Shown: positions 981 through 29,563 of the stretch, piece by piece
Layout of the letters: each line of letters starts with the position of its first letter
Numbering within the stretch: the first letter of the stretch is position 1
Source of the DNA: Escherichia phage teqsoen
Length of the DNA stretch: 64,000 bases
Direction: 5' to 3' (one strand)
Sequence record: MN895436.1
Notes under the pieces: model-generated
Databases searched by the model: none
The model's input: the letters and a program-made list of their open reading frames with translations, nothing else
Told to the model about the DNA's origin: nothing
Position numbers and translations under genes: made by a program

Positions 981-3900
981 CAGTAAAAGCACCTTCAGTC
1001 ACTAGTCTCAGAATTTCCAAGTTATCCGCAAATCAGGTGCAAGTACGCTGGGATGACGTTGGTGCTAATTTCTACTATTTTGTAGAAATCGCTGAGACAA
1101 AAACAAACTCGGGGGAAAATCTCCCGAGTAATCAATACAGATGGATTAACTTAGGATATACTGCAAATAACAGCTTCTTTTTTGATGATGCTGATCCATT
1201 GACATCATACATTATTAGGGTAGCTACAGCTGCGCAAGATTTTGAGCAGTCTGATTGGATTTATACTGAAGAGTTTGAAACTTTTGCTACAAATGCTTAT
1301 ACATTTCAAAACATGATTGAAATGCAATTAGCCAATAAATTCATTCAGGAAAAATTTACTCTTAATAATTCTGATTATGTTAATTTTAATAATGACACTA
1401 TAATGGCTGCATTGATGAATGAATCATTTCAATTCAGCCCATCGTATGTTGATGTTTCATCAATAAGTAATTTTATTATTGGTGAAAATGAGTATCATGA
1501 AATACAAGGTTCTATTCAGCAAGTATGTAAGGATATTAACCGAGTTTATTTGATGGAATCAGAAGGAATTCTATATCTTTTTGAGCGCTATCAACCTGTA
1601 GTTAAAGTATCCAATGATAAAGGACAAACCTGGAAAGCTGTAAAGCTCTTCAATGACCGTGTAGGATATCCTTTATCTAAGACAGTATATTACCAATCTG
1701 CGAACACAACATACGTTCTAGGATACGACAAGATTTTTTATGGCCGCAAATCTACTGATGTTAGATGGTCAGCCGATGATGTCAGATTTAGTTCTCAGGA
1801 TATAACATTTGCTAAACTTGGCGACCAACTTCATTTAGGATTTGATGTAGAAATTTTTGCCACTTACGCGACTTTGCCAGCGAATGTATACCGCATTGCA
1901 GAAGCTATTACTTGCACCGATGATTACATTTACGTTGTCGCCAGAGACAAAGTTAGATACATAAAAACGAGTAATGCACCTATAGATTCTGATCCATTAT
2001 CTCCAACATATTCGGAAAGACTTTTTGAACCTGATACCATGACTATAACCGGAAATCCTAAAGCAGTATGTTATAAAATGGATTCTATCGGTGATAAAGT
2101 TTTTGCTCTTATTATTGGTGAAGTTGAAACATTAAATGCTAATCCTAGAACATCAAAAATAATTGATTCCGCTGATAAAGGAATATATGTTTTAAATCAT
2201 GACGAAAAAACATGGAAAAGAGTTTTCGGTAATACCGAAGAAGAAAGAAGACGTATTCAACCCGGATATGCGAATATGTCAACTGATGGTAAATTAGTTT
2301 CTCTGTCTTCGAGTAATTTTAAATTTTTAAGTGATAACGTTGTTAATGACCCTGAAACTGCAGCAAAATATCAGTTAATTGGTGCTGTCAAATATGAATT
2401 TCCTCGTGAATGGTTAGCTGATAAACATTATCATATGATGGCATTTATAGCAGATGAAAAATCTGATTGGGAGACTTTTACTCCTCAACCAATGAAATAC
2501 TACGCAGAACCATTCTTTAACTGGTCTAAAAAATCTAACACACGTTGTTGGATAAACAACTCCGATAGGGTTGTAATAGTTTATGCTGATTTAAAATACA
2601 CCAAAGTTATAGAAAATATTCCGGAAACATCACCAGATAGATTAGTTCATGAATATTGGGATGATGGTGATTGTACTATAGTAATGCCAAATGTTAAATT
2701 CACTGGATTTAAAAAATATGCATCTGGGATGCTTTTCTATAAAGCCTCCGGTGAAATAATTTCTTACTATGATTTTAACTATCGTGTGAGAGATACAGTA
2801 GAAATTATTTGGAAGCCAACTGAAGTATTTTTAAAAGCATTTTTACAAAACCAAGAGCATGAAACTCCTTGGTCGCCTGAAGAAGAGCGTGGACTAGCTG
2901 ACCCCGATTTAAGACCATTAATTGGCACAATGATGCCTGATTCTTATTTGTTACAGGATTCGAATTTTGAGGCATTTTGCGAAGCATATATTCAATATCT
3001 TTCTGATGGATATGGAACTCAGTATAACAATTTACGAAATTTAATTCGTAACAAATATCCACGAGAAGAGCATGCATGGGAATATTTGTGGTCAGAGATA
3101 TATAAAAGAAACATTTATTTAAATGCTGACAAACGTGATGCTGTTGCAAGATTTTTCGAATCACGTAGCTATGATTTTTATTCTACTAAAGGAATTGAAG
3201 CATCATACAAATTTCTTTTTAAAGTTCTTTATAATGAAGAGGTTGAAATTGAAATTGAATCTGGGGCTGGTACTGAATATGATATAATCGTTCAATCTGA
3301 TTCTTTGACTGAAGACTTAGTAGGACAAACGATTTATACAGCTACAGGAAGATGTAATGTTACTTATATAGAAAGAAGCTATTCTAATGGTAAATTGCAA
3401 TGGACCGTAACTATTCATAATCTTTTGGGACGATTAATTGCTGGTCAAGAAGTTAAAGCAGAAAGACTCCCTAGTTTTGAAGGCGAAATTATTCGTGGGG
3501 TTAAAGGAAAGGATTTGCTTCAAAATAATATAGACTATATTAATAGAAGTCGATCATATTATGTAATGAAAATTAAATCCAATTTACCTTCTTCTCGTTG
3601 GAAATCTGACGTTATTCGTTTTGTTCATCCAGTAGGATTTGGATTTATAGCAATTACACTTTTAACAATGTTTATTAATGTTGGTTTAACTCTTAAACAT
3701 ACAGAGACTATAATTAATAAATACAAAAACTATAAATGGGATTCTGGATTGCCTACTGAATATGCTGATAGAGTAGCTAAATTGACTCCAACTGGTGAAA
3801 TTGAGCATGATTCGGTAACAGGCGAAGCAATTTATGAGCCTGGCCCAATGGCTGGTGTAGAATATCCTCTTCCTGATGACTATAATGCTGAAAATAACAA

Positions 3901-27372: not shown

Positions 27373-27398
27373 AAAATGAAGAAAGGGGCCGAAGCCCC
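27373..27398 (-). terminator. Intrinsic terminator downstream of hoc (minus strand)
   Basis: On the - strand: GGGGC-UUCG-GCCCC hairpin followed by TTTCTTCATTTT, starting 7 nt after the hoc stop. Confidence 0.6.
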
Positions 27399-27404
27399 TT
27401 ATGA

Positions 27405-28823
27405 TTATGGATAGATATAGATGATACCAGTTTCTAAAGCAGTTTTATGAATGATGTATCCATTACGTGATTCTTGAACATCAACTTCTGGATAGTCTTT
27501 CATCATCTTCTGGAGAGTGTAACGATGCAAGTAGTACTTACTATCTGGATCGTCAGTTTTCCAATCTTTACCTTCTTCGGTCATTTTTTGGATTTCATCC
27601 ATAACCCACCAACCACACCAGATGTAAGCTGAAGTACGATGTGGAAGAGGATGAACATAAGGTAATTCACCTTCTGGCTCTGGAGCAACTTTATCAGTTA
27701 CCTGAACTTGACCTTCTGCTGTAATAGTTTTGCTATCATAATCAGCAGCAGTAACATTTGCAGTAACTTCAATAGTTTGACTTCCAATAGATGAGGTATC
27801 AACGGTATATACATTAGTTGACCCTTCTACAGGAGAAGAATCTTTCTTCCATGAATACGCAATTTGCGCTTCTTCTGGAGCATCAGTGACATTAGCAGTA
27901 AATGTAGCCGAAGCATCTTGTTGAACGTTAATAGAAGGAGGAGTCAATGTAACCTGTGGATTCATTGTCTTCTTATTAACTGTTAATGATACTTCATTCG
28001 AAGTAACTTCCTTTTCATTGTAATTTTCAGCAGTTACTTGGGCTACGCATTTAATTCTTTTTACTCCACTTGTAGTTGGAGTGTAATTGAACGTAGCATT
28101 AGTTTCTCCACCAACTTGTGAATCATCTACATACCACTGATACGTAGCAGATGCTCCTAGCGGCTGCGAAGCTAAGGCAGCAGTAAATTGAACTGGGGTT
28201 CCAATTACTCCTGCTGGAGGACTATCAGGAGTTACTGCCAAAGTAGTCGTCTGCGTCTTTTTATTAACAGTCAGTGATACTTCATTAGAAGTAACGCTTA
28301 GTGTATCATAATCTGCCGCAGTTACTTGAGCTACACACTTGATTTTTTTAACTCCGCTTGTGTCAGGAGTGTAATTGAATGTAGCGTCAGTTGCTTCGTC
28401 TACAGGAGAACCGTCAACGTACCATTGATACGTAGCGTTTGCACCTGATGGCTGTGAAGCTAAGGCAGCGGTAAATTCAATTGGAGTTCCAATCACTCCA
28501 GCATCAGGGCTACCAGGAGTTACAGCTAAAGTAGTTGTTTGTGTCTTATTTTGAACTGTGATAGTTGTACTAATTTCAGCTGTTTCAGGTTCAGATTCTG
28601 CAACTTGATTGGTTGCAACTACTTTAATAGTCTTTTGACCGGCAGGTCCTTTTAGTACATAACTAAAAGTTGCTGACGTTTCTTCCTGTGGAGCGTCGTC
28701 TACAGTCCAAGCATATGTAATAGGTCCATCTCCAGTTTGACCACTGGGTGTAGCAGTAAACTGCTGAGTCTGATCTATAACTCCAGTAGGTGTTTTAGGA
28801 GTTATATCAACTGTAAAAGCCAT
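27405..28823 (-). CDS. hoc: Hoc, highly immunogenic outer capsid protein, with an extra duplicated Ig-like domain
   Basis: 472-aa ORF made of serial ~95-aa Ig-like modules plus a C-terminal capsid-binding region; two adjacent modules are ~85% identical. T4 Hoc is shorter as I recall (~376 aa). Confidence 0.8.
   Translation of the reverse strand: MAFTVDITPKTPTGVIDQTQQFTATPSGQTGDGPITYAWTVDDAPQEETSATFSYVLKGPAGQKTIKVVATNQVAESEPETAEISTTITVQNKTQTTTLAVTPGSPDAGVIGTPIEFTAALASQPSGANATYQWYVDGSPVDEATDATFNYTPDTSGVKKIKCVAQVTAADYDTLSVTSNEVSLTVNKKTQTTTLAVTPDSPPAGVIGTPVQFTAALASQPLGASATYQWYVDDSQVGGETNATFNYTPTTSGVKRIKCVAQVTAENYNEKEVTSNEVSLTVNKKTMNPQVTLTPPSINVQQDASATFTANVTDAPEEAQIAYSWKKDSSPVEGSTNVYTVDTSSIGSQTIEVTANVTAADYDSKTITAEGQVQVTDKVAPEPEGELPYVHPLPHRTSAYIWCGWWVMDEIQKMTEEGKDWKTDDPDSKYYLHRYTLQKMMKDYPEVDVQESRNGYIIHKTALETGIIYIYP
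27972..28547 (-). repeat. Tandem direct repeat (2 x 288 bp) inside hoc, encoding duplicated Ig-like domains
   Basis: Protein residues 93-188 and 189-284 are near-identical (KTQTTTLAVTP...SLTVNK twice); the DNA units align with scattered substitutions. Confidence 0.8.
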
Positions 28824-28832
28824 AAGTTATCC

Positions 28833-29513
28833 TTATTTTAATGTTACGAAAGAAGAGTTGCGTGTTTCACGAATTAAAACTGATCCGTCGCGGTTAATGT
28901 AATAAATTAAGCTAAATAAAGTTTGGTGTGCTGACGCATGTTCAAAACTAGTTGGGTGAGATTTCCAATCAGGAGTTTCAGCGATCCATTGATAAATCCA
29001 CCAAGGAACAGTGCAGAATCCTGGATTTTTTCCAATCAGCTGAAGATTCGGGCTAAAGTTTTCCGGAAGAGTAAATACAGACGGCTTTTCAGATTCAATA
29101 ATCTCAGCTACAGCCTGTTCGAATTTTTCTTCAACAAAAGGAGTATCTTCAATCAAAACATCGGTATTTTCAGGAATTTTATCCGTTTCTACTACTTCAA
29201 TTTTAATGTCAGATTTAACCGGAGAATCAATCAGAAGTGCTGCTTCTGGATTGACTTCTTCATCGTCATATTTTAATCCCTCTGCAGCATCAGCAGCATC
29301 AATTAAGTCTTTAATAGATAACCCATCAGTCTCTGGCATAGGTTCACTAGCGAGCTTCTGGAGAGCTTCTTCAATATCAACAACGATATTATCAAAAGAT
29401 TTATTCTTTTTGACCTTTATACCAAACTGTTCAGCATATTCAGCTAATTTAGCTTTAGCTTCTTTATTATCATCAAGAGCCTTCAGCTCTGCAATATAAT
29501 CTTTATCTATCAT
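28833..29513 (-). CDS. inh: Inh, inhibitor of prohead protease
   Basis: 226-aa ORF (T4 Inh length) next to hoc. Confidence 0.75.
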   Translation of the reverse strand: MIDKDYIAELKALDDNKEAKAKLAEYAEQFGIKVKKNKSFDNIVVDIEEALQKLASEPMPETDGLSIKDLIDAADAAEGLKYDDEEVNPEAALLIDSPVKSDIKIEVVETDKIPENTDVLIEDTPFVEEKFEQAVAEIIESEKPSVFTLPENFSPNLQLIGKNPGFCTVPWWIYQWIAETPDWKSHPTSFEHASAHQTLFSLIYYINRDGSVLIRETRNSSFVTLK

Positions 29514-29526
29514 AATATTTCCTCAG

Positions 29527-29534
29527 TATAAATA
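29527..29534 (+). promoter_or_regulatory. T4-type late promoter (TATAAATA) for uvsW
   Basis: Exact TATAAATA 30 bp upstream of the uvsW ATG; uvsW is a late gene in T4. Confidence 0.6.
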
Positions 29535-29563
29535 TAGATATATTTATTACATGGTATTTAGAC

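Follow-up and report, generated by a model that had tools for sequence, protein, structure and literature searches.

The window analyzed here, a stretch of 64,000 nucleotides, carries on its minus strand a gene (27405..28823) in whose product one Ig-like module occurs twice in tandem, which raises the question of when and by which route the second module was acquired. An earlier note on this DNA had proposed a recent internal duplication; in the following, we examine the gene, the divergence of the two units, and the distribution of such units among T4-type phages.

The hoc locus and its domain organization

The gene, an intact ORF for a 472-aa highly immunogenic outer capsid protein, is identified by its sequence and surroundings as hoc. 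A phmmer search against PDB sequences matched its product to T4 Hoc (5vf3_Z; E = 6.5e-230), with residues 1 to 137 and 189 to 472 of the query covering all of the T4 protein; since the query aligned in these two stretches, T4 Hoc has one unit fewer. Matches to the Pfam families PKD, Ig_2, and Ig_3 were also present, and the hoc genes of phages ESh31 and Kelasse share 97.7% nucleotide identity with that of the window. The gene order is that of T4, inh-hoc-24.3-24.2-rnlB, and the position of hoc between inh and 24.3/24.2/rnlB agrees with the annotated loci of T4, RB27, ime09, and RB51, in all of which inh is likewise annotated as the hoc neighbor. In the window, the upstream neighbor that fixes the T4-type order is the ORF of inh, the inhibitor of prohead protease (28833..29513, minus strand), and its stop codon is overlapped by the hoc ribosome-binding site read from the sequence (AAGGA, 28830..28834, minus strand). 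Five nucleotides past the hoc stop codon, an intrinsic-terminator-like hairpin, AAGGGGCTTCGGCCCCTT, is followed by a T-rich tract (27383..27400, minus strand), in a place equivalent to that of the terminator annotated after hoc in phages KAW1E185 and D5505. Another terminator-like hairpin, at 28482-28500 inside the first repeat unit, is considered a chance match within coding sequence. No exact minus-strand match to the T4 late-promoter consensus TATAAATA was found upstream of inh and hoc. The sole nearby match to this consensus is located on the plus strand, before uvsW; a near match, TAATAAATA, occurs upstream of inh, and no promoter is claimed for it.

The hoc product comprises four Ig-like modules and a C-terminal capsid-binding domain, all encoded on the minus strand. 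Ig-like domain 1 (aa 1 to 92; 28548..28823), predicted by AlphaFold2 to be a beta-sandwich with pLDDT > 90, is followed by repeat unit A (aa 93 to 188; 28260..28547) and repeat unit B (aa 189 to 284; 27972..28259), the first- and second-position paralogs of Hoc domain 2. Downstream, a module matching T4 domain 3 (aa 285 to 380; 27684..27971) aligns to T4 Hoc residues 189 to 284, and the capsid-binding domain with the stop codon (aa 381 to 472; 27405..27683) aligns to residues 285 to 376. The AlphaFold2 model displays four beta-sandwich domains with pLDDT above 90 (about 90 for the T4-domain-3-type module), an identical strand pattern in units A and B, and low confidence for the capsid-binding domain, and the best Foldseek matches of the model are four-Ig-domain strings (E about 1e-13). 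Residues 381 to 472 are nearly identical to T4 Hoc; furthermore, the six T4 residues given as conserved or gp23-contacting in PMC10385173 (Y293, H295, H299, R300, W309, and W310) are all kept, at the T4 position +96. As read from the gene, the capsid fiber of this Tequatrovirus is built of four Ig-like modules plus the capsid-binding domain, versus three modules in T4. As a Hoc, it would sit as a single copy in the middle of each gp23 hexamer of the mature capsid.

Divergence and age of the two repeat units

Tandem Repeats Finder detected one array (27967-28547; period 288, 2.0 copies, 77% matches), and a separate repeat search also gave the 288-nt spacing. The two units, each of 288 bp, are in frame and free of indels, for a total of 576 bp, and they map exactly to the residues (93 to 188 and 189 to 284 of the 472-aa Hoc) and to the span (27972-28547) at which the earlier note had placed them; it was equally sound in reading a tandem doubling of a single Ig-like module within the protein, the module being that of T4 domain 2. 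Compared in register, A and B are identical at 219 of 288 nucleotides (76%), a score of 219 or more having a binomial probability of about 2e-70 given the base composition observed, and at 76 of 96 amino acids (79%), a lower protein identity than the approximately 85% first reported. Self-comparison of the protein bore out that the two units are more alike than the other Ig modules, whose pairwise amino acid identities are 38% (domain 1 and A), 39% (domain 1 and B), 37% (A and the domain-3-type module), 36% (B and the domain-3-type module), and 25% (domain 1 and the domain-3-type module). Nevertheless, to call the units near-identical and differing only by scattered substitutions was an overstatement, as 69 of the 288 nucleotides differ (13 in first, 15 in second, and 41 in third codon positions) and the longest exact in-register run common to both is 14 nt.

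The divergence between A and B corresponds to a dN of 0.145 and a dS of 1.061, the latter saturated, with a dN/dS ratio of 0.14, which indicates only that both copies stay functional. In other arrays, the dS between unit 1 and unit 2 ranges from 0.55 to 1.41, whereas the hoc flanks differ between phages by a dS of only 0.08 to 0.43. Moreover, the closest counterparts of each unit are found in other phages. Window unit A shares 93 to 97% nucleotide identity with the first units of slur08, FJ1 (96%), and T4_ev151 (97%), and window unit B shares 97 to 98% with the second units of the four-copy phages slur08 and FJ1 (98% for FJ1). Unit B is also closer than A to T4 domain 2, with 87% nucleotide identity to the single T4 unit. 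At the protein level, A is up to 98% identical to some single-copy units and B up to 99% identical to others.

A neighbor-joining tree of 46 units from 22 phages (of about 616 records), which is only approximate since many units are fine-scale mosaics, grouped the units by array position and not by phage. The bootstrap values were 100% for clade A, for clade D, and for the split of A from B+C+D, and 88% for clade C, while clade B was paraphyletic (12%). Clade A gathered all of the first-position units of 14 arrays together with two single-copy genes. No array with units more than 85% identical in amino acids or 84% in nucleotides was found among 38 proteins and 14 DNA arrays. Judged by these comparisons, the split of A from B predates the radiation of the sampled T4-type hoc alleles; the two are old diverged paralogs, common to hundreds of sequenced relatives, with both copies kept under purifying selection and not homogenized against each other. 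The duplication can no longer be described as recent, given that its units are neither closest to each other nor separated by a low dS.

The amino acid differences between A and B were not enriched in the loops predicted from the AlphaFold2 secondary structure (11 in loops versus 9 in strands, 20 in total; Fisher P = 0.32), so that there is no structural sign of directed diversification of any binding surface, and loop-focused variation of this kind is not claimed.

Copy number, unit order, and recombination junctions

The T4-type Hoc proteins with one, two, three, and four domain-2 copies measure 376, 472, 568, and 664 aa, respectively, and this comparison of lengths agrees with the earlier proposal that the module number varies among T4-like genomes. 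Among the best-scoring 120 protein representatives listed, 78 have 376 aa, 29 have 472 aa, and 7 have 568 aa, with a few others; the 664-aa form is that of slur08, FJ1, and Sfk20. The unit DNA was taken from GenBank phage records, as the scan of IMG/VR gave only four close Tequatrovirus loci; the units analyzed do not include T2 and PST, at whose loci an intact hoc ORF was not recovered. In all, 890 unit copies are spread over 616 phage records. Of 60 records sampled at even spacing, 38 have one copy, 21 have two, and 1 has four, and two-copy records represent roughly one third of the database records.

Ordered subsets of A-B-C-D account for 30 of the 38 multicopy proteins, with A always first and D always last, and the other 8 present a mosaic first unit, scored as "C-B." Different phages display the arrays A-B-C-D, A-(B/C)-D, A-(B/D), and A-B, as well as single units of A type, of B type, or mosaic. 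By its sequence, the window allele belongs to a polymorphism that runs through the whole population, with one to four units largely collinear with A-B-C-D, and represents its A-B form.

Junctions were called by DNA painting together with 44 to 50 informative sites per comparison, which replaced a protein-level quarter-unit painting of low resolution with many ambiguous mosaics. In particular, the B-to-C switch in the second unit falls between nt 24 and 63 in KMB26, ESh36, and ECML-123-2 and between nt 219 and 228 in T4_ev151; in ime09, the second unit changes from B to D type, with the breakpoint at nt 24 to 35. The occurrence of hybrid units with single clean switches at three different breakpoints in five phages points to repeated unequal recombination. 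Window unit B is of B type at 42 of the 44 sites that distinguish B from D and at 44 of the 50 that distinguish B from C, departing from it only at the last informative sites, from unit nt 273 onward. The single T4 unit is an A/B mosaic with an A-B-A pattern (runs test, P < 1e-4), being B-like at nt 63 to 219 and A-like at nt 228 to 273, and the single-copy units of mar005P1 and of an IMG/VR locus (L004) have A-type 5' sites followed by B-type sites, with borderline runs tests (P = 0.04 and 0.07, respectively). As for the suggestion that the direct repeat is a substrate for further recombination, the hybrid units speak for expansion and contraction of the array, but the present pair, with no identical run longer than 14 nt, is less likely to be a ready substrate.

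Origin of the repeat and comparison with known phages

In our opinion, the 576-bp repeat very probably represents two old paralogs of domain 2, the copy number of which shifts by unequal recombination, with the extra module probably tuning adhesion. Copy number would change when paralogous units pair out of register and undergo unequal homologous recombination, either within one genome or between coinfecting phages, with hybrid units left at the junctions. Ordinary recombination would afterward spread the resulting alleles, and this would account for the mosaic flanks of hoc. As to the direction of events, units may have been lost from an ancestor with four copies or gained by an ancestor with one or two.

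A recent doubling in situ, in which a single domain-2 unit was duplicated in the window lineage shortly before sampling and then accumulated scattered substitutions, would be in line with units that are in frame, exactly 288 bp long, free of indels, and 79% identical in amino acids compared to 25 to 39% for the other Ig modules. Yet this origin is very improbable in view of the dS of about 1.06, of the 41 of 69 differences that fall at third codon positions, of the 93 to 98% nucleotide identity of each unit to its same-position counterparts elsewhere compared to 76% to its neighbor, and of the clustering by position, with full bootstrap support for clade A; in addition, the A-B arrangement recurs in RB27, moskry, Sf21, and the IMG/VR contig L003, with units at a dS of 0.14 to 0.52 from those of the window. 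An artifact of assembly or annotation, such as a misassembled repeat or a chimeric contig, has to be considered because tandem repeats are open to misassembly and hoc is annotated in two pieces in several close relatives, but we regard it as scarcely conceivable: copies differing at 24% of their positions would be neither collapsed nor invented by an assembler, the ORF is intact, and the full 1419-nt hoc recurs with 94 to 98% identity in phage genomes from independent sequencing (of 684 records with a match, 596 span 80% or more of the query, a count that may include single-copy genes).

It is less easy to set aside the fusion of two long-diverged single-copy alleles, A and B, of different phages, joined by one unequal crossover during coinfection and spread thereafter, in which case the A/B divergence would date the alleles and not the joining event. 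Single-copy hoc genes of A type (D5505 and IMG/VR locus L006) and of B type (RB51 and KAW1E185) both exist, the fixed A-before-B order would likewise follow if the array arose once and then spread, and the hoc flanks are strongly mosaic (domain 1 of the window is identical to that of L003, and their tails are 92.7% identical), so that interphage recombination is frequent here. Nonetheless, we deem such a fusion unlikely, since the order is collinear across four unit types, with A leading and D closing each array that holds them, and the A-then-B pattern of mar005P1 and L004 is what would remain after a deletion in an A-B array, with the borderline significance given above; the T4 mosaic is significant but more complex. 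Even under a fusion, the joining would not be recent, as A-B arrays have diverged from one another by a dS of 0.3 to 0.5.

Beyond the paralog history that we favor, it is possible to hypothesize, tentatively and with rather low probability, that the domain-2 array is a small cassette repertoire, in which the four long-lived paralogs A to D with distinct ligand preferences are reshuffled by unequal recombination into fibers of one to four modules. Neighboring units would be held apart either by the quick collapse of near-identical copies through the T4 recombination machinery or by selected specificities, and the window A-B allele would be one of the possible combinations, having an adhesion phenotype of its own. 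The hypothesis draws on the lack of neighbors above 85% amino acid identity in our sample and of concerted evolution despite the very active recombination of T4.

With regard to adhesion, the extra module would lengthen the surface fiber by one Ig domain, adding a second domain-2 surface, and would probably tune attachment to mucus or cell surfaces. PMC11853027 describes the domain-2 residues S183, L184, and T185 of PNJ-9 Hoc as needed for binding to MUC2, and the MUC2 bound by these SLT residues is reported to be fucosylated. Since SLT occurs at residues 183 to 185 and 279 to 281 of the window Hoc, both units keep the motif; it is this conservation that suggests possible mucus adherence of the BAM type, through mucin glycans bound by the Ig-like domains, carried over from the three-domain Hoc of another phage. 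More generally, Hoc homologs carry between 1 and 10 Ig-like domains in a string (PMC10385173). The capsid-binding domain is conserved, and the count of Ig-like domains varies from protein to protein (Fokine et al. 2023, PMC10385173; Fu et al. 2024, PMC11853027); the Hoc-like protein of Serratia phage Muldoon, for instance, has 10 of them, and that of PNJ-9 is without domain 3. The consulted passages of these papers contain no description of a collinear Tequatrovirus domain-2 array of one to four copies with hybrid junctions, and our literature search returned no explicit description of domain-2 copy-number polymorphism, which does not establish its absence from the literature.

The window repeat itself is an ordinary, already cataloged variant that brings nothing new: deposited genomes match the allele with 98% identity, at least one record already carries an annotation of the repeat, and variation in the number of Ig-like domains of Hoc has been published. 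Its interest lies in the role of Hoc as the phage protein most often invoked for mucus adherence and as a main scaffold for display when T4 is engineered for vaccines and as a vector. A second, third, or fourth diverged domain-2 copy is present in about a third of the T4-type phages sequenced, and these copies, together with the mosaic domain 2 of T4, matter when adhesion is compared between "T4-like" therapeutic phages and when a Hoc scaffold is chosen.

Among known systems, T4 Hoc (PDB 5vf3 chain Z and 8t1x; UniProt P18056) agrees with the window in gene, locus, domains 1 and 3, and capsid-binding domain, and its domain-2 module is of the same family; different from the window (472 aa, two units), it has a single domain-2 unit (376 aa), which is neither A nor B. 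The length and architecture of the window protein recur in the 472-aa Tequatrovirus Hoc of Kelasse (MW749001), ESh31, ime09 (JN202312), RB27 (KM607000), Yersinia phage phiD1, and fPS-90; the hoc genes of these 472-aa phages are 94 to 98% identical to that of the window, and in Kelasse and phiD1, 14 kb around hoc is 98% identical. However, the 472-aa alleles of ime09 and sb4 are not A-B, since A is combined with a D-type unit, which in ime09 is the B/D hybrid. The 664-aa Hoc of slur08/slur03/slur14, FJ1, and Sfk20 and the 568-aa Hoc of T4_ev151, ESh36, KMB26, and ECML-123-2 have orthologs of the window units at positions 1 and 2 (93 to 98% nucleotide identity in slur08, FJ1, and T4_ev151), and these three- and four-copy phages share the window flanks; different from the window, they carry extra C and/or D paralogs or B/C hybrids. 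Finally, Dhakavirus-like phages (IME341, VR20, SP18, and WG01) present a parallel polymorphism in module number, with hoc genes of 849, 1134, and 1419 nt and an internal tandem pair in IME341 and IMG/VR locus L008 (59% and 80% amino acid identity, respectively). In these proteins, which share about 48% overall identity with the window Hoc, the duplicated module is of the domain-3 type instead of domain 2, and the duplication is an independent event in a sister lineage.

The hoc locus and its tandem Ig-like units

The minus-strand hoc ORF (27405..28823), which encodes a 472-aa product, has inh (28833-29513, minus strand) as its upstream neighbour and homologues of 24.3, 24.2, and rnlB downstream, while uvsW starts from 29564 on the opposite strand; comparison with the T4 locus confirmed that the T4 gene order is retained around the gene. 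The stop codon of inh and the ribosome-binding site of hoc (AAGGA) overlap. At 5 nt past the hoc stop there is a GC-rich hairpin with a T-rich tract behind it, and relatives have a terminator annotated at this place. The 14 kb around hoc share 98.3% identity with Escherichia phage Kelasse and 98.0% with Yersinia phage phiD1, and by sequence the window is a Tequatrovirus. Moreover, deposited genes that match its hoc at 94-98% identity are numerous, and their annotations read Hoc, “PKD domain protein,” or “large head outer capsid protein.” By every testable criterion of membership, the window protein is a Hoc.

Within this protein, unit A (residues 93 to 188; 28260-28547) and unit B (residues 189 to 284; 27972-28259), both on the minus strand, form a single array, detected by Tandem Repeats Finder at 27967-28547 with a period of 288, 2.0 copies, and 77% matches, and the 288-nt register was recovered by a second repeat search as well. 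The two units share 76/96 residues (79%) and 219/288 nucleotides (76%) without indels, and chance is excluded as the source of the match (binomial P of ~2e-70). Among the 69 nucleotide differences, 41 fall at third codon positions, and in register the units share no identical run longer than 14 nt. The search of PDB sequences retrieved T4 Hoc (E = 6.5e-230), aligned in two stretches (query residues 1 to 137 and 189 to 472), each collinear with T4 Hoc, from which it follows that the latter is shorter by one 96-residue block. An earlier note had proposed a recent internal duplication of an Ig-like domain at 27972-28547. The interval is correct, an internal module duplication is supported, and A and B are indeed far more alike than the remaining Ig modules, which showed 25-39% identity to A, to B, or to one another. 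However, the protein identity of about 85% put forward there exceeds the measured 79%, and the description of near-identical units with only scattered substitutions is overstated, given the 69 differences and the 14-nt maximum run.

The AlphaFold2 model of the window Hoc, built on 48 homologues, has beta-sandwich folds at residues ~1 to 90, 93 to 187, 189 to 283, and 285 to 376, each of these four domains with pLDDT above 90, and a low-confidence C-terminal domain; the strand pattern is the same in A as in B. Foldseek matched the model to four-Ig-domain strings in the PDB (e.g., Dscam, Sidekick, ICAM-5 D1-D4, and an ice-adhesin Ig repeat tetramer), and the Pfam matches were PKD, Ig_2, and Ig_3. 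Furthermore, all six T4 Hoc residues described as conserved or gp23-contacting in PMC10385173 (Y293, H295, H299, R300, W309, and W310) are kept, with an offset of +96. The same paper describes a Hoc fibre ~180 Å long in which a capsid-binding domain carries three Ig-like domains. According to PMC11853027, domain 2 of phage PNJ-9 Hoc (N92-N187) binds MUC2 and requires S183, L184, and T185. Both window units close with TSNEVSLTVNK, which places SLT at 183-185 and 279-281. With four Ig domains and SLT in both units, the fibre should be about one domain longer and should present the domain-2 surface twice; by analogy, an extra domain 2 would fit a role in tuning adhesion. The differences between window units A and B were not concentrated in the predicted loops (P = 0.32).

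Age of the paralogues and copy number

The supposed recency of the duplication is contradicted by the divergence of the units, by their closer counterparts in other phages, and by their clustering. Between A and B, dN is 0.145 and dS is 1.06 (dN/dS of 0.14), so that synonymous sites are saturated, while the inter-phage dS of hoc domain 1 and of domain 3 plus the C-terminal part is only 0.08-0.43; units 1 and 2 of 13 other arrays gave dS of 0.55-1.41 and dN/dS of 0.09-0.27. Window A is 97%, 96%, and 93% identical in nucleotides to unit 1 of T4_ev151, FJ1, and slur08, respectively, and window B is 98% and 97% identical to unit 2 of FJ1 and slur08. At the protein level, single-copy Hocs include some whose one unit is up to 98% identical to A and others whose unit is up to 99% identical to B. 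When 46 DNA units from 22 phages were placed in a neighbour-joining tree, they grouped by array position, not by phage: all 14 first-position units, with the single units of D5505 and of the IMG/VR locus L006, form clade A (bootstrap, 100%), last-position units form clade D (100%), clade C reaches 88%, and B units are a paraphyletic grade (12%), with the split of A from B+C+D at 100%. The two copies thus do not evolve in concert.

The A-B arrangement also occurs in RB27, Sf21, moskry, and the IMG/VR locus L003, at dS of 0.14-0.52 to the window units, which makes the array no younger than the deepest splits of the sampled hoc alleles. No fresh duplication was found among 38 multi-copy proteins and 14 DNA arrays, that is, no array with units more than 85% (amino acids) or 84% (nucleotides) identical. 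It is possible that one unequal crossover between phages with diverged single-copy alleles made the array, and the hoc flanks are mosaic (domain 1 of the window is identical to that of L003, with tails 92.7% identical), but even this event would not be recent. Paralogues A and B are old, and both copies are under purifying selection.

In line with the earlier note, module number varies among T4-like genomes (Hoc of 376, 472, 568, and 664 aa). Among the 120 best-scoring representatives listed (clusters at 90% identity), 78 have 376 aa, 29 have 472 aa, 7 have 568 aa, and lengths of 375, 377, 378, 468, 567, and 570 aa occur once each; the four-unit, 664-aa form is found in slur03, slur08, slur14, FJ1, and Sfk20. 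We counted 890 unit copies across 616 phage records, and of 60 records taken at even spacing, 38 contained one copy, 21 two, and 1 four. The two-copy hoc is common.

Collinearity, mosaic units, and recombination

With four-copy arrays as references for the domain-2 paralogues A to D, 30 of the 38 multi-copy proteins are ordered subsets of A-B-C-D (15 A-B; 3 each of A-B-C, A-B-D, A-C, and A-D; 1 each of A-C-D, B-D, and A-B-C-D), in which A is never other than first and D never other than last; in the other 8, the first unit is mosaic and was scored as C. The polymorphism is collinear for the most part, and it includes recombinant junctions: at the DNA level, several units are clean hybrids of two parental types. 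In KMB26, ESh36, and ECML-123-2, unit 2 is B-type at its first informative sites but C-type at unit nt 63 and beyond; in T4_ev151, the B-type part of unit 2 runs to nt 219 and the C-type part starts at nt 228; in ime09, unit 2 changes from B to D between nt 24 and 35. Hybrids of this kind would be expected from unequal crossing-over removing one or two units, and the three distinct breakpoints indicate independent recombination events. Domain 2 of T4 itself (hoc at 2225-3355 of the T4 locus, L002) is mosaic, B-like at nt 63-219 and A-like at nt 228-273 (runs test P < 1e-4 against the RB27, window, and slur08 arrays). In window B, nearly every informative site to about nt 261 is of B type, and the last ones (nt 273 on, ~16 nt) have the form that terminal units show at their 3' end.

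The single units of mar005P1 and of the IMG/VR locus L004 show A-type sites 5' and then B-type sequence, with only borderline runs tests (P = 0.04 and 0.07). Both moskry (MN850651; two copies) and mar005P1 (LR027390; one copy) are classified in Mosigvirus and carry a Tequatrovirus-type hoc, which suggests that hoc has been exchanged between genera; the pattern of the mar005P1 unit is one that deletion from a moskry-like A-B array would leave. Some Hocs with T4-type ends (P0056, 472 aa; P0084, 567 aa and 54% identical to the window Hoc overall) have much more divergent extra modules, ~56% identical to the neighbouring unit, which look like imported distant Ig modules, not A-D paralogues.

Copy number would change when misaligned units undergo unequal homologous recombination, probably often during co-infection. 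In T4, recombination efficiency drops steeply below ~50 bp of identity, and rare deletions between short repeats still occur; with a 14-nt maximum run, the window array would be expected to remain fairly stable over the time scales of laboratory work. In T4, uvsW and inh are separated by segE, a homing-endonuclease gene (L002 868-1485), while the window has a 50-nt inh-uvsW gap only (29514-29563) and so is without segE; as a speculation, a homing site near hoc could add to allele mosaicism via co-conversion of flanking DNA. An exact T4 late-promoter consensus, TATAAATA, lies at 29527-29534 (plus strand), 30 nt upstream of the uvsW start, and only a near match, TAATAAATA, lies on the opposite strand upstream of inh/hoc.

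Public records and known relatives

In several records hoc appears disrupted or split: T2 (LC348380) has two short hypothetical CDSs where hoc is expected, PST (KF208315) has a hoc annotated as truncated, and FriedrichMiescher, 101117BS1, and PM107 have it in two pieces. Such genes are either genuine pseudogenes or the result of homopolymer errors in sequencing. Contamination or mislabelling probably explains the 32-kb “Staphylococcus phage SAJK-IND” (MG010123), labelled as an S. aureus phage, whose hoc is 94% identical to that of the window, and two Hoc proteins named “endonuclease” (P0035 and P0096) from Shigella sonnei and Bacillus cereus assemblies.

The two-unit Hoc of the window is an already known feature: the two-copy form has been in GenBank for years (ime09 and RB27), the moskry record annotates a repeat_region within hoc, and variable Ig-domain number is published, with 1 to 10 Ig-like domains in Hoc homologues according to PMC10385173. 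Our literature search found no paper describing the 1-4 copy collinear domain-2 array or the T4 mosaic domain 2, which may be a modest addition to knowledge. The same kind of variation has arisen independently in the sister lineage of Dhakavirus-like phages, with hoc genes of 849, 1134, and 1419 nt encoding two, three, or four Ig modules; in IME341 (MH051917) and the IMG/VR locus L008 (hoc at 1501-2919), it is a domain-3-type module that is duplicated in tandem, with copies 59% and 80% identical in amino acids, respectively.
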